IMG/VR virus record: IMGVR_UViG_3300020576_003530
Coordinates: 32,001-96,000 of that record
Strand: one strand, 5' to 3'
Length of the DNA: 64,000 nucleotides
Source of the DNA: a virus
Lineage: Duplodnaviria; Caudoviricetes
The notes below the pieces were generated by a model. It did not search any database. It saw nothing but the letters and a program-made list of their open reading frames with translations, and had not been told where the DNA came from. Below, piece after piece: positions 3,802 to 36,201 of the stretch (positions are counted from its first letter, which is position 1; each line of letters opens with the position of its first letter). A program made the position numbers and the translations under genes.

Positions 3802-4152
3802 ATGAAAATCGCTAACATCGTTAACAAAATATCGGTATTGTGGTTGCCACTACCAAGTACTCAAATTGATTTGATAGATGCAACCATCCAATATAGTGAA
3901 GCAAAAGGTGTAGTCAACACTTTAAAAGAACTCACTCATGAAGATAAAATAACCGGTTCCTACAAAACTTCTTACTATGTAAGATCTAAAGGCGGCAAAC
4001 ACATTATGTTTGACGCTGAAAAAGATGGTTATTACTCTCGTTATCCAATCAAATTTATCGAACTTGTAAGTAAAGATCGCGATCAAATTACTGGTTACTA
4101 CTATATTCCAGTAGGCTATTTTAACAGACCTGTAAGGTTTAACAAAGTATGA
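3802..4152 (+). CDS. 'MKI' paralog family member (subfamily 1)
   Basis: Starts MKIANIVNKI; aligns by eye with 22036 and 22421 (LP..QI.L, D.ITG.YK); C-terminal YYIP. Confidence 0.7.
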   Translation: MKIANIVNKISVLWLPLPSTQIDLIDATIQYSEAKGVVNTLKELTHEDKITGSYKTSYYVRSKGGKHIMFDAEKDGYYSRYPIKFIELVSKDRDQITGYYYIPVGYFNRPVRFNKV

Positions 4153-4394
4153 ACATTCTCCCTAATGACATCTTCATTCACTGTGAAGGAAAGACCGTCA
4201 GACTATACTTTGAACTGGAAGTGGTAGGAGATATTCCCAACTCCGAGTTTTACAGTCTCATCAATCCTCGCCCTTACTTTGTGGTAGAATGTGGGGATGA
4301 CTATCAGGCAACGCACAGCATTCCCGCCCCATCCTCCATCATATTCCTCTTACTGGGATTGCTTTTACTCCTCCCTCGGAAACGTAAACCATGA
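4149..4394 (+). CDS. small protein with a C-terminal PEP-CTERM-like sorting signal
   Basis: Ends IPAPSS, then a hydrophobic helix IIFLLLGLLLLLP, then basic RKRKP. Confidence 0.7.
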   Translation: MNILPNDIFIHCEGKTVRLYFELEVVGDIPNSEFYSLINPRPYFVVECGDDYQATHSIPAPSSIIFLLLGLLLLLPRKRKP

Positions 4395-4726
4395 AAATTA
4401 ATGCCTTGCTTCAATCTATCGTGACTGACGCTGCGGTAGATCCTTTATACTATGTAGGATATCCTATTGAAGGACATCATGGACTCAAAGTATTTTGTAA
4501 GTATTATCTAGATCAGACTCCCTTTTTAATTCCACAATCTAAAATAGCAAAAATGATAGAAACATGTGATTCCTATCTTCACTATTTAGATTTGAGCATT
4601 CAAGACTGGGCAGAAAACGACAATTATAATGCTATTGCTGCTTGTGTAGATGGGCAATGGTATGTAATACCAATGAATTCAGTTAAACAATATCGGTCCA
4701 TTAAGTATAAAGGAATTCAAACATGA
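4391..4726 (+). CDS. 'MKI' paralog family member (divergent)
   Basis: Starts MKINALLQSI, Tyr-rich, ends WYVIP...SIKYK. Confidence 0.6.
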   Translation: MKINALLQSIVTDAAVDPLYYVGYPIEGHHGLKVFCKYYLDQTPFLIPQSKIAKMIETCDSYLHYLDLSIQDWAENDNYNAIAACVDGQWYVIPMNSVKQYRSIKYKGIQT

Positions 4727-4980
4727 CAGTTCGAAGCATTATTCCATCTGTCGTAGATTTGTATAATCAAATTCCTTGTGATGGCGAGGACTGTAGAATT
4801 GCTGACGACATTCGTAAACAAATGGACTGGAGACATAAACAAGTCAGAATGACTATTTCTGATAGTAAAATTGAAATTTTGAAGAGCCTAGGCTATCGAC
4901 TCTCCCATTTCAAAAAGTGTCCATTCAGCGAAAATGCCTCGAGAGTGACTATTAGTTGGCGACATGGAGAAAAGAAATAA
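4723..4980 (+). CDS. hypothetical protein
   Basis: ATGA overlap with the upstream gene. Confidence 0.55.
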   Translation: MTVRSIIPSVVDLYNQIPCDGEDCRIADDIRKQMDWRHKQVRMTISDSKIEILKSLGYRLSHFKKCPFSENASRVTISWRHGEKK

Positions 4981-6116
4981 TGAAGATTTGGCCTCCGTTA
5001 TACTGTCGTGATAGCAAAGAAAAAGTAAGAACTTGGTTTGTGCGTCAAGAGGGTCCTTCCTACCGTATTACCTCCGGCCTGCTTGAAGGTAAGCAGGTAA
5101 CGACAGACCCCACAGTCTGTAAAGGTAAGAACGTAGGTAAAGCTAATGAGACTAGTCCGATCGAGCAAGCCACCAAAGAGATTGAGGCTCTTTATCGCAA
5201 GCAGATTGAGCAGAACTACTTTGAGGACATTTCCGAGATTGATAATTACTGGTTAGAGCCTCAGCTTGCAAAGGTTTACAAGGATTATCCAGACTATCTA
5301 GACTTTTCTAAAGGTGTTATCATTGATCACAAGTTAAATGGTGTGTGCTGTCTGGCTACGGCCAAAGGTTGCTTTACTCGCAAGAACAAACAGTTCTTTA
5401 CAATCCCACATATTGAGCAGGCTTTAAAGCCGATCTTTGAGGCTTTCCCTCATGCCTACTTACATGGAGAACTGTTTAATCCAGATCTCGTTAGAAATTT
5501 GGGTGACCTAGTTGAAATTGTCAGTGTTACTCGCAAACTCAAAGATGTGACGCCTGAACTATTAGAAAAATCACGCAAAATTGTCCAATTCCATCTGTAT
5601 GATGGGTATAATTTTGCCTCAGTCAAACAAGATAGTACAACATATGGCCGCAAAAATGGACTCACTCAATTAGTCAAAGATCTGAATAGTCCCTATATCA
5701 AAATTACTCCATGGTGTGTATCTGCTTCCATGGAAGAAGCCGAAGATATCTATCGTAAATATGTTAAAATTGGAGGCGAAGGCATCATTCTTCGTAAATT
5801 TGGTGCCCCTTATCAACATAAGAGAACCAAAGATCTTCTTAAATATAAAAAGCAAGAGACCGAAGAATTTGAGGTCGTCGAATTAGAAGAGGGTGACGGA
5901 AACTGGAAGGGCAAGGCTAAGGCTGCTGTCTGTAAGCTCCCCAACGGGACCACCTTCAAGACTAACCTCGAGGGCGATCAAGCTAAACAAGCCAAGGCTT
6001 GGAAGAATCGAAACTCTTATCGCGGCAAAATGATTACGGTAAGATTTCAGGAATACAGCCCAGATGGAGTGCCGCTGATTCCGTATTCAGATCTGACCGT
6101 CCGCGATTATGAGTAA
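4980..6116 (+). CDS. lig: ATP-dependent DNA ligase
   Basis: KLNGV (motif I), LHGELF, EGIILR, KRTKDLLKYK, and a C-terminal OB domain (ITVRFQE..DGVP). Confidence 0.92.
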   Translation: MKIWPPLYCRDSKEKVRTWFVRQEGPSYRITSGLLEGKQVTTDPTVCKGKNVGKANETSPIEQATKEIEALYRKQIEQNYFEDISEIDNYWLEPQLAKVYKDYPDYLDFSKGVIIDHKLNGVCCLATAKGCFTRKNKQFFTIPHIEQALKPIFEAFPHAYLHGELFNPDLVRNLGDLVEIVSVTRKLKDVTPELLEKSRKIVQFHLYDGYNFASVKQDSTTYGRKNGLTQLVKDLNSPYIKITPWCVSASMEEAEDIYRKYVKIGGEGIILRKFGAPYQHKRTKDLLKYKKQETEEFEVVELEEGDGNWKGKAKAAVCKLPNGTTFKTNLEGDQAKQAKAWKNRNSYRGKMITVRFQEYSPDGVPLIPYSDLTVRDYE

Positions 6117-6190
6117 TTTTATCGAGAAAGGGTCTTACTGTCTGCCGAATAGATTTTAACCCGAATCTGTTCTAGATTTTCCTAAAGGAA

Positions 6191-6219
6191 TTGATTTTTA
6201 TGCCCTCTAACCCTATACT
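6191..6219 (+). promoter_or_regulatory. sigma70-like promoter
   Basis: TTGATT-N17-TATACT. Confidence 0.6.
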
Positions 6220-6400
6220 TCCACATGATGATCAACACATCCTACTTACCGTTTTGGACGAGTTACGATTTCTGGTGAGAGAGTCAGAAAGACGAAACAA
6301 TCTAACTCTTACCGCCCGCTATCAAGAGATGGAAAAAACCCTGCGTGAATATATGCAGGTCATTGAATTACTTCCAAGCGAAGAATTCATGTTTGATTAA
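6200..6400 (+). CDS. hypothetical protein
   Basis: Short helical ORF filling the gap after the ligase. Confidence 0.45.
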   Translation: MPSNPILPHDDQHILLTVLDELRFLVRESERRNNLTLTARYQEMEKTLREYMQVIELLPSEEFMFD

Positions 6401-6422
6401 AGAATCTCTACGAGATCTTCCT

Positions 6423-6584
6423 ATGACACAAGTTACTTTTTGGGGCCTTCAAAACAAGAATACCAAGCAGCTTATCAAGATTCGGAACACCCGCGAGGAA
6501 GCTCGTCGGGATCGTAATAGTGCCGACAACAAGGGCAGCGTTGCTCTCGTTCGTATTCGCGGCACTATGACCGTGGCACGGTAA
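6423..6584 (+). CDS. small basic hypothetical protein
   Basis: In-frame ATG at 6423 (MTQVTFWGL...); basic. Confidence 0.5.
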   Translation: MTQVTFWGLQNKNTKQLIKIRNTREEARRDRNSADNKGSVALVRIRGTMTVAR

Positions 6585-6618
6585 GAGGTTATACAACCTC
6601 CTACCATAGGAGTTAGTT

Positions 6619-7044
6619 ATGACGGATAGTCAAGTAAATAATCGGGCCAATGGCGTAATTCCCTTCAATCCTCGCTTTCGTTATGCCAAGCGACCACGAG
6701 TGGTTTGGAGAAACGAGCAACTCACGCTGGGGACTTCTAATACCCCGCTAGTAGCGACTGATTGTAAAGTGCCCATTACTGAACTGCACCCCTTTGGACT
6801 GATTGCTTATAACTATGACGAGGCCAATCACAATCTTTCACTAGGGTTCTCCCTATGCTGCAAGACTGATCGTTTCAACAAGAATGAGGCCAGACGATTG
6901 GCCGTGGAAAAGCTTTCTACTCAACCTATTCAGATTGACACAAGCAAACTGAACGCAGACACGATTCCTACAATTCTACAACAACTTCCTTATAGTCTGC
7001 ACAGCCACACCATCTTCCTCCTAAATAAGTTTATTCCTTCATAA
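6619..7044 (+). CDS. hypothetical protein
   Basis: SD AGGAG upstream; G.SLC...DRFNK..AR..A motif of a kind seen in phage proteins. Confidence 0.6.
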   Translation: MTDSQVNNRANGVIPFNPRFRYAKRPRVVWRNEQLTLGTSNTPLVATDCKVPITELHPFGLIAYNYDEANHNLSLGFSLCCKTDRFNKNEARRLAVEKLSTQPIQIDTSKLNADTIPTILQQLPYSLHSHTIFLLNKFIPS

Positions 7045-7063
7045 TGTCAAGCTAACGCCAAAT

Positions 7064-7095
7064 GCAGGGGACCGTCAGGTTCCCTGTTATTTTTT
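7064..7095 (+). terminator. intrinsic terminator
   Basis: Hairpin GCAGGGGACC-GTCA-GGTTCCCTGT followed by TATTTTTT. Confidence 0.75.
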
Positions 7096-7428
7096 ATGTA
7101 CACAAGTAAGATAGATCAAAATACCAACTTGTCCCTATGGGTTCAGGAGAATAGCGAAAAAGTAGTAGAGTTGTTTGTGCAGACTACTCAATTTATCCCC
7201 TCTGATGATTATGATGAGTACGTAGAAGAGGTCATTGGTAAGTCTGTCTGCGTGGCAGTTGCCTGCATTAATGAGGCAGAAAAAGTTACAAACGGAATGA
7301 CTTTTTGCGATGATGACGCCGATCTGATTGCCGCTCTTTCCTACGCTATCACCTACTTTATTTGTTCCGTTATCGATAGTGATGAAGATGAGGACGATAT
7401 CCTCAAGGATTCTAACACCTCTTTATGA
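7096..7428 (+). CDS. acidic hypothetical protein
   Basis: 110-aa ORF; ATGA overlap into ruvB. Confidence 0.55.
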   Translation: MYTSKIDQNTNLSLWVQENSEKVVELFVQTTQFIPSDDYDEYVEEVIGKSVCVAVACINEAEKVTNGMTFCDDDADLIAALSYAITYFICSVIDSDEDEDDILKDSNTSL

Positions 7429-8582
7429 GTACTACACGTCCGACTTCTTTTGATGATCTTATCGGTCTAGACGAACAGGTTCAAGCAATCAGGTATGACA
7501 TACAGGGAGCTATTCAAAGAAATCAGAAAATTCAAAGCTTCATTATTGGCGGCGGTGCCGGTCTCGGTAAGAGTACTATCGGCAATTTGATTGCCAGTAT
7601 GACTGGCGGAGAGGTGGTTAAAATTCTAGCCTCCGATCTCACGCCTAATCTGACCTACGATTTGGCCCAACGCTGTAAGGATGGAGACGTGATCTATTTG
7701 GAGGAGGCTCATGCCATTCCTAAAAAGGTCGGCCCTATCCTTCTCGAATGGATCGAGAATAATAAAATATTAAGTGATGTAGGACCGCTCGAAGCCCCAA
7801 AGACTGTGTTTATTTTCCCAACTACGGATGCAGGAATGATTCTTCCTGCCTTGCGTAGTCGTTGTCAATATGTCAGTCTGAACTTCTACAGTGTAGAGCA
7901 CCTTAAGCAGATCATTGATAGGGCTGCTAGACTCATGGGTCACGAACTCAATGATGATGAGGCTCTTACTATGATTGCTCGGTCAAGTAGGGGGACTCCA
8001 CGAACCGCAATTGAAAATAGACTGTCTACAGTTCTGAATGTTATGGCTGTAGATAAGATTCCCTTTTGCGTAGATACGGTAGCGAAAGCCTTTGCTATCA
8101 AAAAGATCAATCCTTACGGTCTCGAGAAGGCAGACCTCGAATATTGCTCTCTCCTGTATGATTACCAGCGTAGTGATGGTGGTAAACCCGTATCTCTCTT
8201 AACTCTTGCCCAGCTAATGGGTATGTCACAGAATGTCTTGACCGACATCATCGAGCGATATCTAGTACAAATCGGATTTGTTCGTAAGGTAGCCAAGGGT
8301 CGTATTTTGACCAACTTTGCCTGCGAGTGCCTTAATTTCCCCCCGCTAGTAGAATTTAATGATTTCCTCGATAATGAGGAGGTTATGGCAGATGTGCTAC
8401 ATACATTAGAAACTGGCAAAGTAAAAACCGTTAAAGAATTTGCTGGTCTTATCGGCCTCAAATATCCCCAAGATCGAATTAAGATTCGTTCAGTCTTACA
8501 AAAGTTTGGCTACAAAGCAGTACAAAAGAAAGGTTTGGTAAAACTACATGAGTCGTCCGAGACAAACATTGAATCTGAATGA
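7425..8582 (+). CDS. ruvB: RuvB-like Holliday-junction branch-migration AAA+ ATPase
   Basis: RPTSFDDLIG, GLGKST, LRSR, ARSSRGTPR.A, and C-terminal wHTH (IERYLVQIGFV...KGR), with an extra ~80-aa C-terminal extension. Confidence 0.88.
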   Translation: MSTTRPTSFDDLIGLDEQVQAIRYDIQGAIQRNQKIQSFIIGGGAGLGKSTIGNLIASMTGGEVVKILASDLTPNLTYDLAQRCKDGDVIYLEEAHAIPKKVGPILLEWIENNKILSDVGPLEAPKTVFIFPTTDAGMILPALRSRCQYVSLNFYSVEHLKQIIDRAARLMGHELNDDEALTMIARSSRGTPRTAIENRLSTVLNVMAVDKIPFCVDTVAKAFAIKKINPYGLEKADLEYCSLLYDYQRSDGGKPVSLLTLAQLMGMSQNVLTDIIERYLVQIGFVRKVAKGRILTNFACECLNFPPLVEFNDFLDNEEVMADVLHTLETGKVKTVKEFAGLIGLKYPQDRIKIRSVLQKFGYKAVQKKGLVKLHESSETNIESE

Positions 8583-8811
8583 GGTTGATATTGATATGGC
8601 TGGCATTGAGCAGTTAATCATTAATAAGCGGTTTAAGCTTACTCAATTTGCTCAGTCTAACAATATCAATCCAAGTGAGTTAAAAACCAAACTTGTTGAG
8701 TATCTCACGGCTCAAGGCTATACTGTCAGTATTAAACGTGGTCGTTCTGGGGGAATTAGTATTGCAAAGACCGCCAGCAATGCTGATATCTCACCATCGG
8801 AGTTAGAATAA
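8548..8811 (+). CDS. small putative winged-helix DNA-binding protein
   Basis: Helical segment followed by a wing-like SIKRGRSGGI. Confidence 0.45.
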   Translation: MSRPRQTLNLNEVDIDMAGIEQLIINKRFKLTQFAQSNNINPSELKTKLVEYLTAQGYTVSIKRGRSGGISIAKTASNADISPSELE

Positions 8812-8835
8812 AAATTTGAAAGCGAGTCTTAACTT

Positions 8836-9048
8836 ATGTACCTCACAATTGTAGACTTTGTTCGTCCTGGACTTGCTCGTGTATTACCCGTTACTGAATA
8901 TGCTGATGGGGCACGAGATAATCGTACAATGCTGGCCATCATCAATACGTTCGCGAGAACTGGTCAAACGCTCCGATTCCAGCAGGCTTATCAGTTTGTG
9001 GCCGATCTTCCCAATAACGATGGTTTTATTCACTGGAAGCAGGCCTAA
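8836..9048 (+). CDS. hypothetical protein
   Basis: ORF fills the gap in the operon. Confidence 0.55.
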   Translation: MYLTIVDFVRPGLARVLPVTEYADGARDNRTMLAIINTFARTGQTLRFQQAYQFVADLPNNDGFIHWKQA

Positions 9049-9050
9049 CC

Positions 9051-9416
9051 ATGAAAATAGATGCTCTGCTGACTAGCTGTTATCAGGCATCATTAAGTAT
9101 GATGATGCCGTATAAAACTGGCGATAAGATTGATGTTGAAGATCATTACAAGATAGATACTAAAAGTAGAAAAATAAATTGGTCATATAAACATCGTGGC
9201 GAAGATGATTTCTTCTCTTTCTTAGGTTATGGAGTAGTAGTAGGGGATGAGCTTCTATCTTTCTCTCTCACTCTTACTCCTCAGTCCAATACCTATATTT
9301 TTACCGATTCCAACGTCGAACGTCAAATAATCAATCTTGTCTACCGTCATCCTTCTCTTGTTCGTTTTATTCCACTTCCCCTCTTCCATAGCCATGTTAA
9401 ATATCAAACTTCATAA
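9051..9416 (+). CDS. 'MKI' paralog family member (subfamily 2-like)
   Basis: Starts MKIDALL; contains LGYGVV...SN.YI; ends FIP...VKYQ. Confidence 0.6.
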   Translation: MKIDALLTSCYQASLSMMMPYKTGDKIDVEDHYKIDTKSRKINWSYKHRGEDDFFSFLGYGVVVGDELLSFSLTLTPQSNTYIFTDSNVERQIINLVYRHPSLVRFIPLPLFHSHVKYQTS

Positions 9417-9651
9417 CGGTAAAATTGTTCAAACAATGACGGGTAAAATGAAGGTAGAAGATCTGGTAACCATCTTACTAGCTCTTTCTACTGGAGAACT
9501 TTATGAGCAACTTATTCTGAAATTGGAAGAATCGGTGGGAGAGGACGTCTTTAATCAGATCAAGATGGACATCATCAAGCGAAATAAGATTGGTGAGCAG
9601 GTTCTCCTCCATCAGGCCGCAACCCCTCTGTCAAAAAAGAGTAGCGAATGA
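9395..9651 (+). CDS. hypothetical protein (start approximate)
   Basis: In-frame MLNIKLHNGK; ATGA overlap with the next gene. Confidence 0.5.
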
Positions 9652-10031
9652 ATATAGGTAAAATAGTTGATCAAATAAAAACAGTAAATGGTTTTCACTC
9701 ATTTCAGTTTGATGACAGGTTGAATCTATCAAAAAAAGAATTCGATAGTATTCTGTATGTAAAAATCGACAACGATGAGTTACAATATATTTCAACTCGC
9801 GGATATGGGACGGATTATTACGCATATGGATATGCTTACATTGTTGATAAGAAATACCTAAAAATGTCTGTAGAATATTTTGCTGAGGCAAACTACATTT
9901 TAGGTTATCATGGGTATTGGACTAGTAAAGAAGATTATGAGTACCATCTTGTTCGTGGTGGTGAAAACTATGAATATAATCTTCTGCCTATTGTGCCATC
10001 TTACAAAAAATTAACTTGGAAAGTAGGATAA
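9648..10031 (+). CDS. 'MKI' paralog family member (subfamily 2)
   Basis: Starts MNIGKIVDQI; YGYA...SVEYFAEANYILGY..YW aligns with 20786 and 21162. Confidence 0.7.
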   Translation: MNIGKIVDQIKTVNGFHSFQFDDRLNLSKKEFDSILYVKIDNDELQYISTRGYGTDYYAYGYAYIVDKKYLKMSVEYFAEANYILGYHGYWTSKEDYEYHLVRGGENYEYNLLPIVPSYKKLTWKVG

Positions 10032-11526: not shown

Positions 11527-11763
11527 ATGGCTAAGATTATTTTCAATGGTTCGCCCGTCACCCTGAATTCCGTCGTTGGTTCCACCGTTGGTCAGTTCCG
11601 CGACTCTGCGGCTTTCGAGCAGGCCAAGGACCTCCTCGAGGTTCCTGACAACGTCAACCTCGAAATTCAGGACGGCACCACTTGGCGTACCGCTGACAAC
11701 GACGACCTGATTGAGACCGGTACCAATCTCCGTCTGACTCAGACTGTCGGTACCAAGGGCTAA
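11527..11763 (+). CDS. ubiquitin-like (beta-grasp) modifier protein
   Basis: 78 aa with a beta-grasp-like pattern (STVGQFR helix, D..I..G..L.L last strand) and an exposed C-terminal GTKG; first gene of an E2-JAB-E1 operon. Confidence 0.8.
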   Translation: MAKIIFNGSPVTLNSVVGSTVGQFRDSAAFEQAKDLLEVPDNVNLEIQDGTTWRTADNDDLIETGTNLRLTQTVGTKG

Positions 11764-11818
11764 ATCGGAGTAAGCCAGACTAAGCTAGTTAAGTTAGTCT
11801 AATTGAAGTTCATACTGC

Positions 11819-11849
11819 GGGTTAAGTACGATCTCTAGATCCTCTGCTT
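11819..11849 (+). terminator. terminator-like hairpin 1 after the Ubl gene (end approximate; the structure runs to about 11860)
   Basis: Stem GGGTTAAG...CTTAACCC with an inner GATC-TCTA-GATC, followed by CTTTT. Confidence 0.5.
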
Positions 11850-11867
11850 AACCCCTTTTCATTCTTC

Positions 11868-11903
11868 GAGTCGGGTAGGGTTCACTCCCTGCTCGGCTTT
11901 TTT
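11868..11903 (+). terminator. intrinsic terminator between Ubl and E2
   Basis: GAGTCGGGTAGGG-loop-CCCTGCTCGGCTT followed by a T-run. Confidence 0.75.
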
Positions 11904-11953
11904 AATTCAGACGTTCTGAGTTAAGTTTTCACTCATACACAAGGATTTCATAC

Positions 11954-12817
11954 ATGACTGGTACACGGGTTAAGAAAGTTAAGTTGGCGGATAGCGTGGG
12001 GACTACTGCAGTAATTGGTAAGGCTACCGAAGCTATTGTTGGCAGTGAATCTGTTGTTAAGGCTAAGAAAAAGCGTGCCCCGCTCAAGGACAAGCTCAAC
12101 ACTAACAACACTATTGCTATCCTCAAGCCTGATGGTGTGCTTGTGCTTCAGATTGAGGCCAACGGCGAAACTGCCGAAGCCAAAGCTGTCGGTATGTGTG
12201 AGTGTTCGGATCTGATCGACGCCCTTCGCTCGGAAGAATCAATTTCTACCCCGATCCTGCCTCGCCATACTCGCTGCTATTCGACCATTCATAAGGGAGG
12301 TTCTAAGAAAGACGTATACCTGTTGGAGATTCCTCCAACTCTTCGCGTCCTCCAACACTCCATTCATGGCGAACTCCGTCTCTGGTTCCCCTATCACTAT
12401 TTCATTGTGAAGGCTTCCAGCATTAATGGCGACACTATTGTTGGCGGCCAGGTGATGACTTTCTTTGGTAATCGTCCGCTCAAGAACATGAATGACTATC
12501 CTCAGTCAATCGCTCTGAACAACGTGGAAACTCGTGGCATCATTTGTTTTGGAGAGAATACTATTGATCGTAATCACGCCGGTAAGGACTCCTCAGAAGT
12601 CATTAACGATGTGGTTCAAACCTTCTTTAGCTCCACCTTTAACAATCACTATGATGAGTACCTTCTCAATCTGATGCCCGCAGAACTTGCTGGCAAGAAC
12701 GCTAAGGAATTTTATGCTAATTGGCAAAAGAAAGCGGAAGACCCAATTTCTGCCTGCTCATTTAGCTGGCGGACTTACAACATTAGCTTTGCAGACCTTA
12801 TGAAAGGAAATTCTTAA
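11954..12817 (+). CDS. prokaryotic E2 (Prok-E2_D / PRTRC protein B-like) conjugating enzyme
   Basis: TPILP, L.FP...F, LNNV...G.ICFG (putative catalytic Cys) and FFSSTFN; operon context. Confidence 0.8.
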   Translation: MTGTRVKKVKLADSVGTTAVIGKATEAIVGSESVVKAKKKRAPLKDKLNTNNTIAILKPDGVLVLQIEANGETAEAKAVGMCECSDLIDALRSEESISTPILPRHTRCYSTIHKGGSKKDVYLLEIPPTLRVLQHSIHGELRLWFPYHYFIVKASSINGDTIVGGQVMTFFGNRPLKNMNDYPQSIALNNVETRGIICFGENTIDRNHAGKDSSEVINDVVQTFFSSTFNNHYDEYLLNLMPAELAGKNAKEFYANWQKKAEDPISACSFSWRTYNISFADLMKGNS

Positions 12818-13044
12818 TGTCCAAGACTATTGACGTAGAATTACTGAAAGACCGAACAAAGAATACTAAGAAGACCAGCACGGGCAAACTAGACGATAAT
12901 TTCAGTCGTCTCGTTAGTGCTCTCAATAAGTGTTCGTTCTATGACTGTAAGGGTATTGAAGATACCGACGAGTTTGTGGAATTCATCAATCAGACTGACA
13001 AAGGTAAATCAGTCGTTTCTCTCGCTAAAGGAGTCCGTAGATGA
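12817..13044 (+). CDS. hypothetical protein inside the Ubl operon
   Basis: Translationally coupled on both sides (TAATG, ATGA/TAG overlaps). Confidence 0.6.
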   Translation: MSKTIDVELLKDRTKNTKKTSTGKLDDNFSRLVSALNKCSFYDCKGIEDTDEFVEFINQTDKGKSVVSLAKGVRR

Positions 13045-14444
13045 TTATTGATGTTGGAATTGCAAAGTTAGAAATTGTTGCTCCCGAGGGAGAAGTTACG
13101 CATGACTCTTCGATCAATTATCACAATTATCGTGGTACATGGTTGAAGAGACGGCAAATCGGACCTGCCACCTATTTGGTGCCAGTAAATGATCGTGAGG
13201 AAGGTAACATCAGCAAATGGATGGAACAATCTCTTGGTGAGGCAAAATATAAGCCCGCCATGATTTACTTCCTGAATTATGATCAGAAGGTCAAACTAGA
13301 TCCTGAGGATCTCCGTTACTTCATGCGTTATGCACAGGCCATTCATAACAAGCATAAGACCGAGTGTGCGGCTCTCCTGCTGTACAATCCTGACAATAAC
13401 GATTGGAAGTTCTTCTATCCATTGCAGGTTGATACAAGCGGAGGTGCCGTTACCTACATCTTCCCAACCTCAAACTTGGCAGATCCCAAGATTGCTAAGT
13501 ACTTTGAGAAGAACGAGGAAAATGTTAAACTGCACGAAAAAATCGTTGCAGACTACAATGAGTTGTTCGATGCTGGATACTCTGTGGCGGGCACCATTCA
13601 TAGCCATCACACTATGAGTGCGTATCACTCGGCAGTTGATGATGCCGACGAAATGAAGTTTGACGGACTCCACTTGGTTGTTGGTCACATCTTTAGCGGA
13701 TTTGACTTTGCTGCTCGGTGGATGCTTCAGCGGACTGAGTTTAAGCTCGATATTACCGATGTGGTCGATATCAGTAGGGAAGAATTAGTCAAAGACGTCG
13801 AGTCCATCGAAGTCTCTGACTGGGATATGGATCTACTGCGTCACTACACTAATCCGACGCCAAATCTGGCATTCTGGCACGGGAATAGCTGGGAAGGCTT
13901 TGAGGACCAGCGTGGTAATGCCTATGGTCATTATGGGAGTTACGGCAATCATGCAGGGTTTCTTCGCTCGGCTGAAGACTTGGTGTCAAGCCGTCGTGGG
14001 GGCGATTCTCTGTTTACCTGTTGCGATGCCTGTGGCAAACAAGTCAAGGAAGACGAAGGAAACAGACCCTTTGCCGGGTTCTGTGCAGAGTGTGGTAACC
14101 GATTTCTCTCCAACAACCCAAAAAGCATCTCGGCTATGTTCAACTACCGATATGCCAGCAAAAAACCGGGCAGCTACTTCCTCGAAGCGGACTATATTAG
14201 ACTATACGATCCCGATGTCAAAGAATTCGTCTGGATCAACCGCGAAGAATACGAAAAAGACAAATCTTTCTACTCCAAGTGCATCGTCAGAGAGCTTGAC
14301 GAAATCCGAATTGAGGAAGTTTCGGAAGCAATTGAAGAAATCCAAAAACAAGAAATGGGGCAAACGGTAGTAAAAAACGACAGTGAAGGTGAGGATATTT
14401 TTAATTTCCTCGATGAAGTGATGGATCCTAATAGGGAGTCTTAA
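13041..14444 (+). CDS. JAB/MPN+ metallopeptidase (deubiquitinase-like) with C-terminal Zn ribbon
   Basis: Catalytic Glu (KTECAA), JAMM motif HSHHTMSAYHSAVDDADE, and CDACG...CAECG. Confidence 0.85.
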   Translation: MIIDVGIAKLEIVAPEGEVTHDSSINYHNYRGTWLKRRQIGPATYLVPVNDREEGNISKWMEQSLGEAKYKPAMIYFLNYDQKVKLDPEDLRYFMRYAQAIHNKHKTECAALLLYNPDNNDWKFFYPLQVDTSGGAVTYIFPTSNLADPKIAKYFEKNEENVKLHEKIVADYNELFDAGYSVAGTIHSHHTMSAYHSAVDDADEMKFDGLHLVVGHIFSGFDFAARWMLQRTEFKLDITDVVDISREELVKDVESIEVSDWDMDLLRHYTNPTPNLAFWHGNSWEGFEDQRGNAYGHYGSYGNHAGFLRSAEDLVSSRRGGDSLFTCCDACGKQVKEDEGNRPFAGFCAECGNRFLSNNPKSISAMFNYRYASKKPGSYFLEADYIRLYDPDVKEFVWINREEYEKDKSFYSKCIVRELDEIRIEEVSEAIEEIQKQEMGQTVVKNDSEGEDIFNFLDEVMDPNRES

Positions 14445-15164
14445 ATGATTTTTGAAGTAAAGCGAATTCTTGTGGTGGGAGCTGGCGGTACTGGTAGTAT
14501 TTTGTTGCCTCAACTAGCCAGACTGTTGCTTCTGACCGAAAACATGCCCGAACTCCACATTGCTGACGGAGATTCTTACAGTGAGTCCAATATCACTAGA
14601 CAGAATTTTGCTCTGCAATATGTGGGTGAAAATAAGGCAAAGTATCAGGCCGAGTTGTTAGTCTTCCAAATGCCTAACATTGCGGATAAGATTTTCTATC
14701 ACGATCGATATTTGTCAAAGGCCGACATTGACGAACTCGTCATTGATGGCACCATCGTAATTAACTGCGTGGACAATCTTGCAGCCCGCAAGCACGTTGA
14801 AGACGCGGTGTGTAAGATGGATAATGGTGCCCATATCTGCTGTGGTAATGAACTCAAACACGGACAAGTTCAAATTAGCGGCCGCAAAAAGGGCGTTCAG
14901 TTTTCTCCCACTATTTTTGAGCGTAATCCCGAATGGAATTCGACCGACGATGATCGCTCCGAAATGACATGTGAGCAGATCGCCACACTGCCATCGGGCG
15001 GTCAGGTGATTTGTTCTAACATGACAGCAGCGTCGATTGCCCTTAATTTTGTGTATCAATTGATGTTTGCTCGTCGCAGTATCCCAAATTGCGATCAAGT
15101 CAATTTTACTATCATTGATAATGGGTATGAAAAGCTGGGGGCACAGGTGTTGGCAGCCGTGTAG
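14445..15164 (+). CDS. E1/ThiF-family Ubl-activating enzyme
   Basis: VVGAGGTG, DGD, N..RQNF, NKA, CVDN..AR, CGN, GQV and TCEQ (putative catalytic Cys). Confidence 0.9.
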   Translation: MIFEVKRILVVGAGGTGSILLPQLARLLLLTENMPELHIADGDSYSESNITRQNFALQYVGENKAKYQAELLVFQMPNIADKIFYHDRYLSKADIDELVIDGTIVINCVDNLAARKHVEDAVCKMDNGAHICCGNELKHGQVQISGRKKGVQFSPTIFERNPEWNSTDDDRSEMTCEQIATLPSGGQVICSNMTAASIALNFVYQLMFARRSIPNCDQVNFTIIDNGYEKLGAQVLAAV

Positions 15165-15190: not shown

Positions 15191-15226
15191 TAGATAGCGT
15201 TTCGTTTTACTTTTTAATTCTTTCCT

Positions 15227-15886: not shown

Positions 15887-15891
15887 GATTA

Positions 15892-15898
15892 GTGTATA
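15892..15898 (+). promoter_or_regulatory. putative phage late-promoter motif GTGTATA
   Basis: The same motif lies just upstream of the genes at 22864(+), 18370(+) and 59330(-). Confidence 0.45.
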
Positions 15899-15924
15899 GA
15901 AAGATATCAAAAGGTACATAAACT

Positions 15925-16443: not shown

Positions 16444-16486
16444 GTTAAGAAGTTAGAATGTTTTGACCTCTTCCTCGATTCTCCTA

Positions 16487-16822: not shown

Positions 16823-17222
16823 ATACTGGTCAGTTGTACGTGAGATCGAATTAGAGACCTTTGCCACTGATCGTCCATACGATTTGTCTAAAGGTTATTG
16901 GTGGCTAATATATTATAAAAACACTCCCGTAGGATTTGCCGGTTTGGACGAGTGTCCAGATGGTACTTACTTTCTAAGTCGTGCAGGAGTACTATCTGCT
17001 CATCGTGGTAAGGGACTTCATAAGAGACTTATTACCATCCGATTGGCCTATGCCAAACGATTAGGGGCTCATGAAGTTTGGACTTATGTGTCAGAATCGA
17101 ATGTAGCGAGCAAAAATAATCTGTTGACCAAAGGTTTTAAACCTTATTATACTAGCGTAAGTCCAACATCTTATGGTAAAAAATGCACCACGTGGATTAG
17201 TTTAAGTAAGATAATTAAGTAA
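16770..17222 (+). CDS. GNAT acetyltransferase
   Basis: VGFAG, GV...HRGKGL acetyl-CoA motif, N.AS...L...GF. Confidence 0.85.
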   Translation: MASHYKVKLVSRPGQQNKYWSVVREIELETFATDRPYDLSKGYWWLIYYKNTPVGFAGLDECPDGTYFLSRAGVLSAHRGKGLHKRLITIRLAYAKRLGAHEVWTYVSESNVASKNNLLTKGFKPYYTSVSPTSYGKKCTTWISLSKIIK

Positions 17223-17263
17223 GAGTTAGAATGATTTGCGATTTTTAAAGGATTTGTTCCTCA

Positions 17264-17563
17264 ATGAGTATTGAAAATATTAAGTCTTCAATGGATAAGA
17301 TTGATAAGGTTGTAGATGAGCATGGGTTGGCAATGGCCAACACTATCTTAGTTCAAACGCTGGGATTGCTCAAGCAAAATAAGGTAAAAGCGACTGAGGA
17401 AAATATCTTGACTGTTTCCTCTCTCCTTCATACTTGTCGCCAGCAAGTTTATAATTCCTTCATGGAATTACTACAAGCAATGAATATGGAAAATACAACA
17501 GAAACTCAAGAAATAAATAACTCATCAAATATTGTTACTAATTTAGATCTGGAGGTCAACTAA
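17264..17563 (+). CDS. hypothetical protein
   Basis: Helical ORF with an AAGGA SD. Confidence 0.55.
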   Translation: MSIENIKSSMDKIDKVVDEHGLAMANTILVQTLGLLKQNKVKATEENILTVSSLLHTCRQQVYNSFMELLQAMNMENTTETQEINNSSNIVTNLDLEVN

Positions 17564-17564
17564 T

Positions 17565-18008
17565 ATGTTTCAAGAAATTCCTGAAATTCATGTAAAAATT
17601 GTTAATCCCGATGCGATCATGCCAGCCAAGGCAGGTCCCAATGAATGTGGATATGATGTGACGGCTGCATCGGACCCCATTCTTACTGATACCTTGGTTG
17701 AGTACGATATTGGAATCCAAGTAGAGCCTCCGCCCGGTTTTTACTTTATTCTTGTTCCTCGTAGTAGTATTACCAAGTATGACTTGGTGTTTGCTCAAGG
17801 CGTTGGTATCATCGATCCCACCTATCGTGGCAATATCAAGATGCGATTTAAGCTGAATAAGCCGCAGGCCGAAGCCAAGTATTATGCTAAGGGTGAACGA
17901 GTTGGGCAACTTATTCTTATGCCTTACTTTAGTGCTCCTATCATTCAGAAAGAGACCCTTACTAATACTGCTCGTGGCGATGGCGGATTTGGTAGTACAG
18001 GAAAATAA
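17565..18008 (+). CDS. dut: trimeric dUTPase
   Basis: GYDV, PRSS, GIIDPTYRG, GERVGQL and RGDGGFGSTG. Confidence 0.96.
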   Translation: MFQEIPEIHVKIVNPDAIMPAKAGPNECGYDVTAASDPILTDTLVEYDIGIQVEPPPGFYFILVPRSSITKYDLVFAQGVGIIDPTYRGNIKMRFKLNKPQAEAKYYAKGERVGQLILMPYFSAPIIQKETLTNTARGDGGFGSTGK

Positions 18009-18010
18009 CG

Positions 18011-18223
18011 ATGATTATTCTATCTCTCATTTTATTAGGTATTGTGTTTGCAAACGCATACTTTCTTAATGAATACATCTCTCAGAGAGATAAACAGTCT
18101 AAAATAGAAAATATTTGTTGTTTGTTTGCCATCATTTCTTGCTTCCTAGCCGGTTTCTATTTGGCCAAAATAGTTTACGAGTTGCCTCCAGTAGATATAA
18201 AAATTCAAATCAATGAAAAATAA
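18011..18223 (+). CDS. small two-TM membrane protein
   Basis: Two hydrophobic segments. Confidence 0.5.
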   Translation: MIILSLILLGIVFANAYFLNEYISQRDKQSKIENICCLFAIISCFLAGFYLAKIVYELPPVDIKIQINEK

Positions 18224-18335
18224 GTTCTCGTATCTTGCCTACCTTCGTTCCGATCAGGCCATGCATATTGCAGGATTTTCCTGCGGTTTTCTCTTTGGTC
18301 TCGTACTATTCTTTCTTATTCTTACATTGATTTAA
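18213..18335 (+). CDS. 40-aa membrane peptide (not in the ORF track)
   Basis: MKNKFSYLAYLRSDQAMHIAGFSCGFLFGLVLFFLILTLI*, translated by hand. Confidence 0.4.
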   Translation: MKNKFSYLAYLRSDQAMHIAGFSCGFLFGLVLFFLILTLI

Positions 18336-18369
18336 ACTCCTATATCAGTGTATGTAATTCTACCTATCT

Positions 18370-20355
18370 ATGACAAATTTCTCATTATCGTTTCCAACAG
18401 CAGAGAACATCCTGTCCGAAGAGTTTCTATCTAAATATCGCGGTAAACAACCTGAATGGGGTTTCAATGGGCTCGGTTACATAGTTTATAAAAGAACCTA
18501 TGCTAGATTAAAAGAAGATGGTTTGACAGAAGAATGGAATGAAACAGTAGAACGCTGTATTAGAGGTGCTCAAAAAATTGGAGCCGGTTATACCGTAGAA
18601 GAAGCGGAAAGATTATATGATCACATGTTTAATCTACGTGGTAACATGGCTGGCCGTTTTTTGTGGCAACTTGGTACAATAACAGTAGATAAATTAGGTC
18701 TTCCTAGTCTTTGTAATTGTTGGTTTGTTACCATGCATGAGGCAGAGTCTTTCTGTTTCTTATTTGAGCATCTTATGTTGGGCGGCGGCGTTGGTTTTAG
18801 TGTTCAAAAAGAGCATATTTATCAACTGTCCAAAGTAAAGAAATTTTCAAAATCTATTCTTCATGAAAAAACTAAAGACGCTGATTTTATCGTTCCGGAT
18901 TCTCGCGAAGGATGGGTTGAGCTCCTAAGAAAAATTCTCCACTCTTACTTTGTAAGTGGTAAGGGTTTTACCTATTCAACTATTCTTGTTCGCGGAGCGG
19001 ATGAACCCATCAAGGGATTTGGAGGGACAGCAAGCGGTCCACAAATTCTCATCGATGGCATGAACAACATTTTAAACATATTCAATAGTCGTGGCGGCAA
19101 ACGTTTGCGTAGTATTGATGTTCTTGATATCTGTAATATTCTTGGCTCGATTGTAGTTGCCGGCAATGTACGACGTTCTGCTGAATTGGCTATTGGTGAT
19201 GCAGATGACAAATTGTATCTGCAAGCCAAAAACTGGTCAAAGGGAAATATTCCTAACTGGCGTGCTATGAGTAATAATAGCATCAACGCCGATGGCTATA
19301 ATTATCTTAGTAATGATTTTTGGTCAGGATATAGTGGCGACGGAGAACCTTATGGTATTACTAATATTCGACTTACCCAAAAATATGGGCGTTTAATAGA
19401 TGGACCTATGAAACATTCTGGTTTGTATCCTTTTAAAGAGGATCCTGCTGTCGGATTCAATCCTTGTGTTGAAGCTAATCTAGAATCCGGCGAACCATGT
19501 GATTTAGCCGAACTCTATCAAAATAGATTAAATAGTAAAGAAGAAATGTTAGATTGTGCTATTTTACTATATAAAGCACAAAAGGCAGCTCTCACTCTAC
19601 CGTCTATCTATCCGATTACTGAAACTATTGTACGTAAAAATATGCGTATTGGTCTTGGTGTTACTGGAATTTGTAACGACATCTCTAAGAGGGATTGGTT
19701 AGATTGGGTATATGTAGAGTTACGTAAATTTGATAAAGAATGGTCAAAACAACGTGGTTGGGCCGAAAGTATTAAAATGACCGTTATTAAACCAAGTGGT
19801 ACACTTAGTTTATTAGCTGGTTCATTTCCTGGCGGACATCCTGGTTATAGTGACTATTTTATTCGTCGAGTTAGAATGTCTTCGAAAGATAGATTAGTGG
19901 AAGTATGTCGTAATCTTGGATGTCCTATCGAATATCAAATTAATTTTGATGGTACAACCGATTATGCAACATCAATTGTAAGTTTTCCATGTACTGCTGG
20001 TGAAAATGCTCTTGTAGCGGATAACGTTTCTGCTGTTGATCAGTTAGAAATGATGAAGTATCTTCAGACTTATTGGGCAGATCAATCGGTATCAATTACG
20101 GTTTACTATAAAAAAGAAGAGTTGCCAGTCATTAAACAATGGTTAGAAGAAAATTACGAAACATCTGTTAAAGCGGTAAGTTTCTTACTTCATTCAGAGC
20201 ATGGTTTTAAACAAGCTCCTTATGAAAAAATCAGTAAAAATGAATACGAAAAAATGTGTAAGCACATGAAGCCAATTTCTTCTATGCACGCAGATGTTGG
20301 AGATCAACTGTTAGATTCCTCAGAATGTGTCAATGGGGCGTGTCCAGTAAGATAA
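18370..20355 (+). CDS. nrdJ: class II (adenosylcobalamin-dependent, RTPR-like) ribonucleotide reductase
   Basis: YKRTYAR, GRFLW, CNC, GGGVGF, VAGNVRRSA, NPCVE, KPSGT.S and C-terminal C..GACP. Confidence 0.93.
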   Translation: MTNFSLSFPTAENILSEEFLSKYRGKQPEWGFNGLGYIVYKRTYARLKEDGLTEEWNETVERCIRGAQKIGAGYTVEEAERLYDHMFNLRGNMAGRFLWQLGTITVDKLGLPSLCNCWFVTMHEAESFCFLFEHLMLGGGVGFSVQKEHIYQLSKVKKFSKSILHEKTKDADFIVPDSREGWVELLRKILHSYFVSGKGFTYSTILVRGADEPIKGFGGTASGPQILIDGMNNILNIFNSRGGKRLRSIDVLDICNILGSIVVAGNVRRSAELAIGDADDKLYLQAKNWSKGNIPNWRAMSNNSINADGYNYLSNDFWSGYSGDGEPYGITNIRLTQKYGRLIDGPMKHSGLYPFKEDPAVGFNPCVEANLESGEPCDLAELYQNRLNSKEEMLDCAILLYKAQKAALTLPSIYPITETIVRKNMRIGLGVTGICNDISKRDWLDWVYVELRKFDKEWSKQRGWAESIKMTVIKPSGTLSLLAGSFPGGHPGYSDYFIRRVRMSSKDRLVEVCRNLGCPIEYQINFDGTTDYATSIVSFPCTAGENALVADNVSAVDQLEMMKYLQTYWADQSVSITVYYKKEELPVIKQWLEENYETSVKAVSFLLHSEHGFKQAPYEKISKNEYEKMCKHMKPISSMHADVGDQLLDSSECVNGACPVR

Positions 20356-20381
20356 AATAAATGTAATTTTTTGTTTAGTCC

Positions 20382-20411
20382 AAGCCGATTAACCTCGGCT
20401 TTTTCTATTTT
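20382..20411 (+). terminator. intrinsic terminator after nrdJ
   Basis: AGCCGA-TTAACC-TCGGCT followed by TTTT. Confidence 0.7.
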
Positions 20412-20426
20412 GTAGGAATAGTTAAT

Positions 20427-20789
20427 ATGAAGATTGACAAACTAATCGAGTTGATGAATACTCCTATTGCATCATTAGGAGAATCACCCCTTATTCTTAA
20501 TTGTTTCAATCAATACTATTATAAACGTCATAATACAAGATCATATTCAGATCATAGGCCATACACAATTGTTTGTGGCTATGCTAAATATGATAAAACA
20601 ACAGACAAAACAACTGATATGAGTATTAAATACAACCCACATATTCACAATGTTTATGTTTTATACTCTATTTTATGGCATGAGCCGGATGAAATTCAAT
20701 CTCGATTTGATAGATTTATGAATAATGAATCTTCACTATTTTATGGTCTTTCCTATATTAAGACGGATCTAAAATTAAGGCTAGTATGA
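20427..20789 (+). CDS. 'MKI' paralog family member (subfamily 2)
   Basis: MKIDKLIELM...YTIVCGYA...GLSYI. Confidence 0.7.
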   Translation: MKIDKLIELMNTPIASLGESPLILNCFNQYYYKRHNTRSYSDHRPYTIVCGYAKYDKTTDKTTDMSIKYNPHIHNVYVLYSILWHEPDEIQSRFDRFMNNESSLFYGLSYIKTDLKLRLV

Positions 20790-21172
20790 AAATACAACAT
20801 CTAATCAATCACATACCTCCAATAAAAGGGTTCAATATATTGCCGATTAAAACACGACTCAAACTCGAAGACATCATAGTCTGTGCTGCATGGATTAATG
20901 GGGCGTTTGATTACTATGAACCTGACATATATGACATCGTATGTGGATACGGTCGCGTTATCTGGGAAAACGATCGACCATATTATATTGAGCGAGCCAG
21001 CACAAAATATTTCCCTAGTGCTAACCATTATCTTACCTACGATTCCTTCTGGTGTGATGAGCCTGATTTAAACGAACAGTTGCAAAATATGATTGATGAC
21101 AATGAATATATAAGTTTGGGTCTCTCCCCCATTCCCACTCAAACAATCAAGAGTATTCGATATGAAAATTGA
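20786..21172 (+). CDS. 'MKI' paralog family member (subfamily 2)
   Basis: MKIQHLINHI...YDIVCGYG...YFPSANHYLTY..FW...GLSPIP. Confidence 0.7.
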   Translation: MKIQHLINHIPPIKGFNILPIKTRLKLEDIIVCAAWINGAFDYYEPDIYDIVCGYGRVIWENDRPYYIERASTKYFPSANHYLTYDSFWCDEPDLNEQLQNMIDDNEYISLGLSPIPTQTIKSIRYEN

Positions 21173-21587
21173 TCAAATTATACAAACTCTAGGGCCAAGT
21201 AAATTTCCTATATTGAAGATTAAACACAAAATCGATCCTAATAAGCTTGATTTTTACGGTAGTTGGTACAAGGGAATTTGCGATAAAAACCAGTGGAAGA
21301 AAAACGATAACGATGGCGATGTCTTCTATTTCACAGTTTGTGGATATGCTCACGTGATCAAAGATGATGAGCAGTACGAAATTCTATCTGCCAACATCTC
21401 TTATTTTAAAGAAGCTAATGCCTATCTAACCTATTCTGCTTTTTGGACTGACACCGATTCCATGAGTGACCTTTGGAATAAGATCTCCACCAAACCCGTC
21501 GAGTTGTATTTGGGAGTTTCATACATTCCTGTTGGGTTTGAAAAAATTGTATACAAAAATAGTGATAAATTGATCTCAAGTTTTTAG
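21162..21587 (+). CDS. 'MKI' paralog family member (subfamily 2)
   Basis: MKIDQIIQTL...YFTVCGYA...YFKEANAYLTY..FW...GVSYIP. Confidence 0.7.
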   Translation: MKIDQIIQTLGPSKFPILKIKHKIDPNKLDFYGSWYKGICDKNQWKKNDNDGDVFYFTVCGYAHVIKDDEQYEILSANISYFKEANAYLTYSAFWTDTDSMSDLWNKISTKPVELYLGVSYIPVGFEKIVYKNSDKLISSF

Positions 21588-21595
21588 GATTTACT

Positions 21596-22039
21596 ATGAA
21601 ATTAATCATTGCTGGTTCTCGTGATGTAAAAGATATCAAAGTATTAGAAACAGCCATTGAGCGGGCTGGTCTTGATCCTGCCTCTATTAGTGAGGTTGTA
21701 AGTGGTAAGGCTCCCGGAGTGGATACGCTGGGAGAGATTTGGGCTAAACAGCATGGAATCACGGTCACCCCATTCCCTGCCCTCTGGGATGATCTCGAAG
21801 GCGTTCCTGCTAAGCAGATTAAAACTAATAGTTGGGGCAAGAAGTATAATATCAAGGCAGGTACAGAACGTAATCAGCAAATGGCCGACTACGCCGATGC
21901 TGCCCTAATCATTATTAAGGATGGATCATCAGGATCGACAGATATGCTCAAGAGGGCCAAAAAGGCCGATCTTACTATCTACTACTTTATGTATGAGCAG
22001 TTATTAATGGAGGAGGGCGATGATACCCTCACACTATGA
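21596..22039 (+). CDS. SLOG/YspA-like (DUF2493) protein
   Basis: IIAGSR, VVSG.A.GVD..GE.WA, AG..RN..MA.YAD and S.G..DM. Confidence 0.85.
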   Translation: MKLIIAGSRDVKDIKVLETAIERAGLDPASISEVVSGKAPGVDTLGEIWAKQHGITVTPFPALWDDLEGVPAKQIKTNSWGKKYNIKAGTERNQQMADYADAALIIIKDGSSGSTDMLKRAKKADLTIYYFMYEQLLMEEGDDTLTL

Positions 22040-22404
22040 AGATTGCCAAAATCGTTAGTAAAATTCAAAGGCCTGCGACCAATTTGCAATATCTAGCGAA
22101 TAATCAAGTCCGACTACAAAATTGCCCCGTAATTTTGGAGTACGATACGCCAATTGATTTTGATTTTTGGACACCCGCAACGCATTCCAATATTGAATAT
22201 AAGGATCGTATGACAGGCGTGTTTCAAATATACAATATGTTTTGTCACGAACCCGGCCTGTGGACCAGAGTCTCTTCAAAAACACAAGCGTTATGGATAA
22301 GTTGTTATAGTAGTGGTCACAACGATTATAGTCCAGACTACTTCTATATCCAGTTGGCAGATGTTACTCATGGTAATAAGTTAGTTAATCTATCCTATCG
22401 TTAA
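22036..22404 (+). CDS. 'MKI' paralog family member (subfamily 1)
   Basis: MKIAKIVSKI...NCPVIL...DRMTG...FYIQL.DV. Confidence 0.7.
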   Translation: MKIAKIVSKIQRPATNLQYLANNQVRLQNCPVILEYDTPIDFDFWTPATHSNIEYKDRMTGVFQIYNMFCHEPGLWTRVSSKTQALWISCYSSGHNDYSPDYFYIQLADVTHGNKLVNLSYR

Positions 22405-22420
22405 AAGGCGTACTCATACT

Positions 22421-22795
22421 ATGAGAATTGATAAAATCATCGATAAGTTAACACTACCAATCTTTGATGTAGTCTTTCTTCCTAATCATCAAATCCTTCT
22501 TCACAATTGTCCTGTTATTTTAGGTCATCATCCACCATTAGATTTTGCCTTTAGCGATCTTGAATGTCATAAAAAGATTAACTATACTGATCGCCTAACC
22601 GGGATGTATAAAATCTCGTTTTATTACTACCATCTCGGACATAGTTTGTGGCATACAACTGAGAGCTGGGATCCTCGTACGGTTTGGATTGCAGGATACC
22701 GTCGCGAAGACCAAGATACTTCCGATTTCTATATCCAACTGAAAGATGTTAATCTGGTTAATGAAGAACGTAAAATGTCATACTGTCTAGCCTAA
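22421..22795 (+). CDS. 'MKI' paralog family member (subfamily 1)
   Basis: MRIDKIIDKL...NCPVIL...DRLTG...FYIQL.DV. Confidence 0.7.
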   Translation: MRIDKIIDKLTLPIFDVVFLPNHQILLHNCPVILGHHPPLDFAFSDLECHKKINYTDRLTGMYKISFYYYHLGHSLWHTTESWDPRTVWIAGYRREDQDTSDFYIQLKDVNLVNEERKMSYCLA

Positions 22796-36154: not shown

Positions 36155-36201
36155 GTTAGATTCAATAATCGTTTCATACACTATTCCATTTACCTCCTAC
36201 A

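Follow-up and report, generated by a model that had tools for sequence, protein, structure and literature searches.

Why do small phage proteins that otherwise have little in common begin with almost the same ten residues? The question is raised by a stretch of 64,000 nucleotides from a phage of the class Caudoviricetes (Duplodnaviria), hereafter the window, which covers bases 32001-96000 of a single 125,275-bp IMG/VR virus record (IMGVR_UViG_3300020576_003530). An earlier reading of these letters, called here the original prediction, had singled out nine open reading frames (ORFs) and had described them as a family with fixed termini around variable cores. All nine are present, at the positions and with the lengths collected in Table 1; members are named after their start in the window (w) or in the genome (g). 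Their common N-terminus, the leader, is non-random, is selected at the level of the peptide and is more conserved than the bodies that follow it, which are devoid of detectable mutual similarity. We put at about an even chance the proposal that these proteins form a lineage-restricted, fast-diversifying family of accessory proteins in which the leader helix is a docking handle to one common partner and the bodies are interchangeable effectors.

The N-terminal leader

The strict start M-[KRN]-I-x-x-[IL]-[IVL] is carried by 13 of the 177 genes crudely called on the record. Only 0.24 would be expected from positional residue frequencies in the remaining genes of the genome. As a control, 1.24 Mb of phage loci were fetched via the neighbouring ribonucleotide reductase (RNR) gene. 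Among their 3,452 ORFs, two have the strict start and both are copies of one protein. Twelve of the 13 genes are small + strand ORFs of the leader family, and the thirteenth, w56705 (264 aa), is probably unrelated to it. Scanning the whole genome with a looser motif, and taking paralogy into account, raises the count to 17 members, which all lie on the + strand, between genome positions 15,847 and 54,795. They are 77-141 aa long and make up about 10% of the genes of the record. The richness in tyrosine already remarked on in the window holds (6-14% Tyr vs. a genome mean of 4.4%). Predicted isoelectric points (pI) range from 4.4 to 9.3, and the proteins are thus not uniformly basic. A candidate at window position 9448 would be the eighteenth member; this one lacks both the richness in Tyr and a paralog, has an ambiguous start, and is left out of all counts.

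When the 17 members are compared column by column, information content is high at positions 1, 2, 3, 6, 7, and 10 only and is at background from position 11 on. The leader is ten residues long, with the consensus M-[KN]-I-x-x-[LI]-[LIV]-x-x-[IL]. Position 2 is Lys in 11 members and N, Q, or R in the six others. The 3/6/7/10 spacing of the hydrophobic residues places them on one face of a helix, which would therefore be amphipathic. For residues 2-11, the helical hydrophobic moment reaches 0.55, vs. 0.30 in other genes (p = 1.5e-8), and glutamate accounts for 0.9% of the first 25 residues, vs. 5.2% elsewhere. Conserved leader residues are encoded by different synonymous codons from one member to another and the upstream DNA is unconserved; hence, it is the peptide that is under selection, and not an element of the DNA or mRNA. 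The same two observations rule out a DNA-level reading, either as a recombination cassette or as a translation-initiation signal. A signal peptide or a lipoprotein signal was also ruled out, since no hydrophobic stretch follows the leader.

Divergent bodies behind a constant leader

Within the genome, phmmer sorts the family into five groups, G1-G5, plus the singletons w4391, w9051, and g16148. G2 is made up of w21162, w20786, w20427, and w9648. The second group of the original prediction is recovered there: w20786 and w21162 are linked with an E-value (E) of 5e-14, w20427 with 1e-6 and w9648 with 3e-5. When profiles are built from alignments enriched with outside orthologs, w9051, which had been considered a probable member, joins G2 (E 4e-5, 77 columns) and G3 (g29390 and g29719) joins G4 (g30083, g31274, and g31590). 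Of the first predicted group, now G1, the pair w22036 and w22421 is strongly linked (E 7e-22) and w3802 is attached weakly (0.01). Finally, the core of G5 (g15847 and g17479) is rich in Cys and differs in this from the Tyr-rich groups.

Similarity across groups is restricted to the first 10-30 residues. The alignment of the G1 and G2 profiles, for instance, does not extend beyond the first ~30 residues (E 8.5e-5). Once 12-14 N-terminal residues are trimmed, profile similarity is left only between G3 and G4 (E 6e-4) and between G2 and w9051 (E 5e-3 to 1e-2). As far as sequence profiles can tell, the bodies thus represent at least four groups without detectable mutual similarity once the leader is removed. 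The opposite end of the proteins is less uniform. A motif defined post hoc, [YFVPS][IL][PQ]-x2-14-[IVLM][KRSVT][YFW], occurs near the C-terminus of six of the nine window members, vs. 2 of 1,174 control small ORFs, and its carriers are spread over G1, G2, and the singletons; upstream groups end differently. The idea of fixed termini is therefore firm for the N-terminus and only partly true for the C-terminus.

Orthologs tell the two parts of the proteins apart. Among ten close ortholog pairs, leader identity is 80-100% and core identity goes from 91% down to 34%; evolution is thus slower in the leader than in the bodies. The most contrasted case is that of w3802 and its ortholog P0021: their first ten residues are identical, their last eight near-identical, and the core, of the same length, is 34% identical. 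Even in distant G2 relatives (25-35% identity), the leader pattern is still present.

The same tendency is observed in a relative from a fish metagenome (X4), whose contigs are 95-96% identical to the window over the flanking genes. At w3802, the first ~30 nt of the gene match, and the match resumes only 25 nt ahead of the stop codon (joint 3831->4128). The body of w21162 (21179->21594) and the N-terminal half of w20786 are likewise unmatched. In these contigs, the leader and the flanks are retained and the bodies of w3802 and w21162 are lost. Judged from sequence, the leader is held constant while some bodies change very fast, and diversification in natural populations concentrates in the bodies, between a constant leader and constant flanks. 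Elsewhere in the same relative, 61 other letters stand in place of 309 nt (window 4679-4987, containing the end of w4391 and an 85-aa ORF at 4723-4980), an indel polymorphism adjoining a family member.

A structural view was obtained for w20786 with AlphaFold2. An alignment of 9 sequences gave a predicted local distance difference test score (pLDDT) of 39, and 15 sequences gave a confident model, with a mean pLDDT of 85 and a predicted template modelling score (pTM) of 0.76. The core (residues 21-115, pLDDT >90) is predicted to be an alpha/beta domain, rich in beta structure and with one long helix. The leader helix (residues 2-8) and the linker that follows have pLDDT values of 61-65, and the last eight residues of ~50. 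Hence, in the single member modelled, the leader is outside the confident core. The model suggests that both conserved termini are poorly packed appendages, an appearance typical of segments that become folded upon binding. Foldseek found no structural neighbor for the model (best E 2.2 in the PDB and 0.49 in BFVD), and the top Z in an exhaustive VIA-align comparison over 48,161 chains was 2.6. The core may be a new fold, an absent match being no proof of it.

Genomic setting and distribution of the family

The record has a GC content of 0.43 and a CheckV completeness of 77%. Its + strand carries, from 1 to 90 kb, replication and nucleotide-metabolism genes, among them those for RNA and DNA ligases, ThyX, dUTPase, RNR, a UvsX-like recombinase, a DnaB-like helicase, a primase, a split DNA polymerase and glycosyltransferases. 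Large structural-type genes, with scaffold and capsid candidates at 112-120 kb, occupy the - strand from 90 to 125 kb. A PHROG scan of ten proteins of this structural arm left nine without a match, the tenth being terminase-like, and tblastn with two structural proteins found no cultured relative for either. The leader genes are tightly packed with nucleotide-metabolism genes, often with overlaps of 4-11 nt (Table 1).

Table 1. Members of the leader family and one doubtful candidate. Coordinates are those of the window, except for the upstream members.
Feature	Coordinates	Strand	Length (aa)	Leader	Group and remarks
w3802	3802..4152	+	116	MKIANIVNKI	Weak link to G1; hypervariable
w4391	4391..4726	+	111	MKINALLQSI	Orphan body without detectable paralog
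w9051	9051..9416	+	121	MKIDALLTSC	Distant G2 member (hhalign)
w9648	9648..10031	+	127	MNIGKIVDQI	G2; 3' end overlaps ThyX start
w20427	20427..20789	+	120	MKIDKLIELM	G2; opens a tandem cluster after a terminator-like RNR hairpin
w20786	20786..21172	+	128	MKIQHLINHI	G2; modelled by AlphaFold2
w21162	21162..21587	+	141	MKIDQIIQTL	G2; body replaced or diverged in a relative
w22036	22036..22404	+	122	MKIAKIVSKI	G1
w22421	22421..22795	+	124	MRIDKIIDKL	G1
Eight upstream members	genome 15847-31895 (starts 15847, 16148, 17479, 29390, 29719, 30083, 31274, 31590)	+
Doubtful candidate, outside the family count	9448..9651	+	67	MKVEDLVTIL	Internal ATG of ORF 9337-9651

The original prediction had not recognized the family, and no curated family matched it. 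Indeed, no Pfam-A match reached the cut-off for any of the 17 members, nor did any PHROG match for the nine window members. Exhaustive HMMER comparison of the G2 profile with 1.84 billion representatives returned only 8 clusters, all of 120-137 aa, and hence no fused forms. Word-indexed searches with G1 and G3/G4 found a handful of metagenome orthologs only. The ESM Atlas gave no usable match for two members, nothing was found when the family members were compared with metagenome, viral and genome contig sets, and tblastn of the family against cultured phages found nothing either. Partial matches of the stretch are present in fish, river, wastewater, and sludge metagenomes. Seventy RNR-anchored IMG/VR loci contain neither core homologs nor the leader family. 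Among them, the closest syntenic relative fetched (L062) has the dUTPase, RNR, and four downstream genes in common with the window, without a leader gene. Given so few relatives, and a syntenic locus lacking leader genes, the family is an expansion inside one narrow phage lineage.

A candidate late-promoter motif, A(A/G)AGTGTAT[AT], has 10 copies in the structural arm (genome 90-125 kb, - strand). Of the 13 structural genes preceded by a gap, 7-8 have its core AGTGTAT[AT] in the 70 nt ahead of them, vs. ~0.16 expected. On the + strand, copies are located at window positions 15892 and 22850 and at genome position 28700. The copy before window ORF 15925 shares a 16-nt identity with that before the structural gene ending at genome position 114289, and the G3/G4 cluster is downstream of a gene that carries the motif. 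Other signals were also considered. The intergenic motif TAAGTARGATTGA has 16 window matches (at most 2 mismatches; e.g., 973, 1789, 2265, 36152, 36832, and 62045) vs. 4.95 expected, and shows no specific association with leader genes. A promoter-like TTGAnn-N17/18-TATACT is modestly enriched on the + strand (8 sites vs. 1.9 expected, at window positions 6191, 8696, 11393, 17124, 22560, 23009, 33959, and 45752), most sites being inside crude ORF calls. A generic scan for sigma-70 promoters and terminators remained at background.

Several genes of the + strand arm deserve mention for themselves. Two ORFs of 546 and 506 aa, separated by three small ORFs (window 34186-38901), make up the split DNA polymerase and match successive portions of a single PHROG polymerase model. 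The RNR gene (window 18443-20365) is absent or replaced in the fish-metagenome relative X4, where its depth is ~0 between flanks that are 95-96% identical. RNR is 661 aa long here vs. 803 aa in L062 and 955 aa in L054, and these longer homologs suggest inserts such as inteins. A GroES-like co-chaperonin (Cpn10, E 2.6e-10) is encoded at genome 16713-16973 (L072:2713-2970), among the first leader genes. Upstream, a conserved two-gene module (genome 14240-15590; L072:240-1590) consists of a 148-aa protein starting with MKHVTIRESAFETNSSSTHS followed by a divergent radical S-adenosylmethionine (radical-SAM) enzyme with a Cx4Cx2C site. The same pairing occurs in Microcystis phage Ma-LMM01 (gp130/gp128) and in IMG/VR locus L076. 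In the control locus L054 (4635-7173), five paralogs start with MK[IV]R.G[YF]VSNSSSSSF.

Possible roles of the leader

According to the docking proposal, small proteins that differ in all else would be recruited through the amphipathic leader helix to a single partner, which could be a hub or assembly of the phage or a machine of the host. Their bodies would act as exchangeable, fast-evolving effectors, probably in host takeover or anti-defence. Phage T4 offers a precedent for a ten-residue tag at the N-terminus of divergent phage proteins (PMC9026906, PMC3012670). The earlier notion of a common element carrying diversified payloads fits the N-terminus, where similarity is confined, evolution is slower and, in the single member modelled, the segment is outside the confident core; it fits the C-terminus only in part. 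Several points weigh against this proposal. A single body was modelled, and differences in fold are deduced from composition and from absent sequence similarity, not from structures. Similar lengths, aromatic richness, the ~30-residue N-terminal region common to G1 and G2 and the C-terminal motif are compatible with one very diverged fold, the N-helix being its best-kept element. The low pLDDT of the termini may come from the shallowness of the 15-sequence alignment, and the common partner itself is putative.

These features lead to an explanation without any targeting, in which the proteins would all be strongly diverged paralogs sharing a single small fold, and the N-helix, and in some members the C-strand, would simply be the most constrained elements. 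The tandem arrangement, which suggests duplication, and the joining of w9051 to G2 and of G3 to G4 also go in this direction. However, N-termini are usually the least, not the most, conserved parts of proteins, the leader of w20786 is modelled with much lower confidence than its core, the Cys-rich core of G5 has a different composition, and the main groups show no similarity after leader removal. We regard a single fold as unlikely, while keeping it in mind. A second alternative comes from T4. Its protein-injection system, of which short tags common to divergent proteins are the hallmark, conveys anti-restriction proteins and has also served to load capsids with foreign proteins. The T4 capsid targeting sequence (CTS) is a propeptide of 10-19 residues, and its first ten are enough to load a protein; targeting depends on residues 4 and 7 and processing on residues 8 and 10, Asp10 blocking cleavage without preventing loading (PMC9026906, PMC3012670). 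It precedes the otherwise divergent internal proteins IPI, IPII, and IPIII as well as Alt (Mullaney and Black, 1996, reviewed in PMC9026906, PMC3012670). By analogy, the leader would load its proteins onto the prohead scaffolding core, a head protease would clip it, and the bodies would be injected with the DNA as anti-defence proteins. Both tags are N-terminal, start with MK, span about 10 residues, have comparable hydrophobic spacings (i/i+3 from residues 4 and 7 in T4; 3/6/7/10, hence i/i+3/i+4, here) and are found on several divergent, fast-evolving small proteins per genome. Targeting and processing are separable in T4, and hypervariable bodies would fit an arms race. The two sequences are nevertheless unrelated (MKTYQEFIAE in T4 vs. 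MKIxxLLxxI here), T4 has 3-4 such proteins vs. 17 here, and the members here are not uniformly basic. The T4-type cleavage motif [LIV]-x-E is present in the first 25 residues of 2 of the 17 members, vs. 48 of all 177 genes (27%), and the phiKZ-type [SAG]-x-E in none, in a region that is moreover depleted in Glu. No match to Peptidase_S77, Peptidase_S78, or Gp23 (PF03420, PF04586, PF07068), and hence neither a T4- or HK97-type prohead protease nor a gp23-type capsid gene, was found, a weak negative because two controls matched nowhere and the record is 77% complete; the nine structural-arm proteins without a PHROG match are a weak negative as well. Finally, the leader genes are located among nucleotide-metabolism and replication genes, and none of the 17 has the candidate late motif within 150 nt upstream. 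With no cleavage motif in the leader, an early/replication setting and no candidate late motif, T4-style loading and clipping is improbable, and the T4-like capsid-targeting signal put forward originally is unsupported in that form. By its architecture, the family takes its place among leader-tagged phage protein families; it is not a member of the T4 CTS kind, as it lacks a defining feature, the cleavage site. The leader resembles the targeting half of the T4 CTS, without the processing half, and uncleaved docking to a capsid component is possible.

Two further explanations involve genes of the same arm. The leader could be the recognition sequence of the divergent radical-SAM enzyme (genome 14673-15590), which would modify the tagged proteins in the manner of a maturase of ribosomally synthesized and post-translationally modified peptides. 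The enzyme matches PF04055 (E 9e-8), its weak NCBIfam matches are all peptide maturases, and its gene is directly upstream of g15847, g16148, and g17479. Its closest cultured homolog, Ma-LMM01 gp128 (41% identity), is 6 kb from an array, gp137-gp157 (L074:24643-29288), of ~18 tiny ORFs of 50-86 aa sharing the leader MKIIN[CS]N.W[AT]PRN, with the radical-SAM gene on the same strand. The two systems have in common many tandem tiny orphan ORFs, an MKI-starting leader and a freshwater phage origin. In contrast, the Ma-LMM01 leader is another sequence, not helical-amphipathic, the proteins are shorter, no body similarity was found between the two systems, and the structural genes show no relatedness. 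Arrays accompany the enzyme in two of four lineages, with different leaders; the other two have no leader array within 10 kb. In three lineages, the enzyme has another protein as its conserved neighbor; this protein carries an ETNSSS-H motif and is the likelier partner. In the present genome, 14 of the 17 leader genes are 14-40 kb away from the enzyme and only 3 are adjacent to it. The enzyme has no SPASM match in Pfam and contains just 6 Cys, of which the Cx4Cx2C site accounts for three. A link to RB43-type radical-SAM enzymes was rejected at the family level, since these match only the generic radical-SAM core, over 27% of the query. Because of the likelier neighbor, the lineages without arrays, the missing SPASM match and the generic nature of the RB43 match, this explanation is weak, and we find it very improbable. 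We give very little credence to a role linked to the ubiquitin-like (Ubl)-E2-JAB-E1 operon (window 11527-15164), where the leader would mark substrates or adaptors of the operon, or else would be a degradation or chaperone tag for a host machine. The operon is in the same arm, 1.5 kb from w9648, and a Lys at position 2 is frequent (11 of the 17 members), but this position is N, Q, or R in six members. No relatives of the E2 and JAB of the operon were found in the phage collections searched.

The docking proposal has parallels outside phages. Encapsulation peptides of bacterial microcompartments and cargo-loading peptides of encapsulins are short terminal amphipathic helices, of the form phi-x-x-phi-phi-x-x-phi, that dock diverse cargo to a shell. 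The likeness with the leader would be one of principle only, no shell or compartment genes having been identified in this phage. A narrower form of the docking proposal, possible rather than likely, makes the helix an uncleaved address label, unrelated to that of T4, which would deliver at least 17 exchangeable arms-race effectors, one of them with an apparently new fold, either to the capsid interior, for co-injection, or to a phage-built hub such as the Ubl machinery.

The architecture of a T4-like tag is thus encountered in an unrelated, uncultured phage lineage, with a different sequence, no protease site and a share of about 10% of the genes of the record. Should the tag serve to dock cargo to one shared partner, it would represent a second, independent way to address many effectors. 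It would also designate 17 candidate proteins for host takeover or anti-defence, at least one of which has no recognizable fold.

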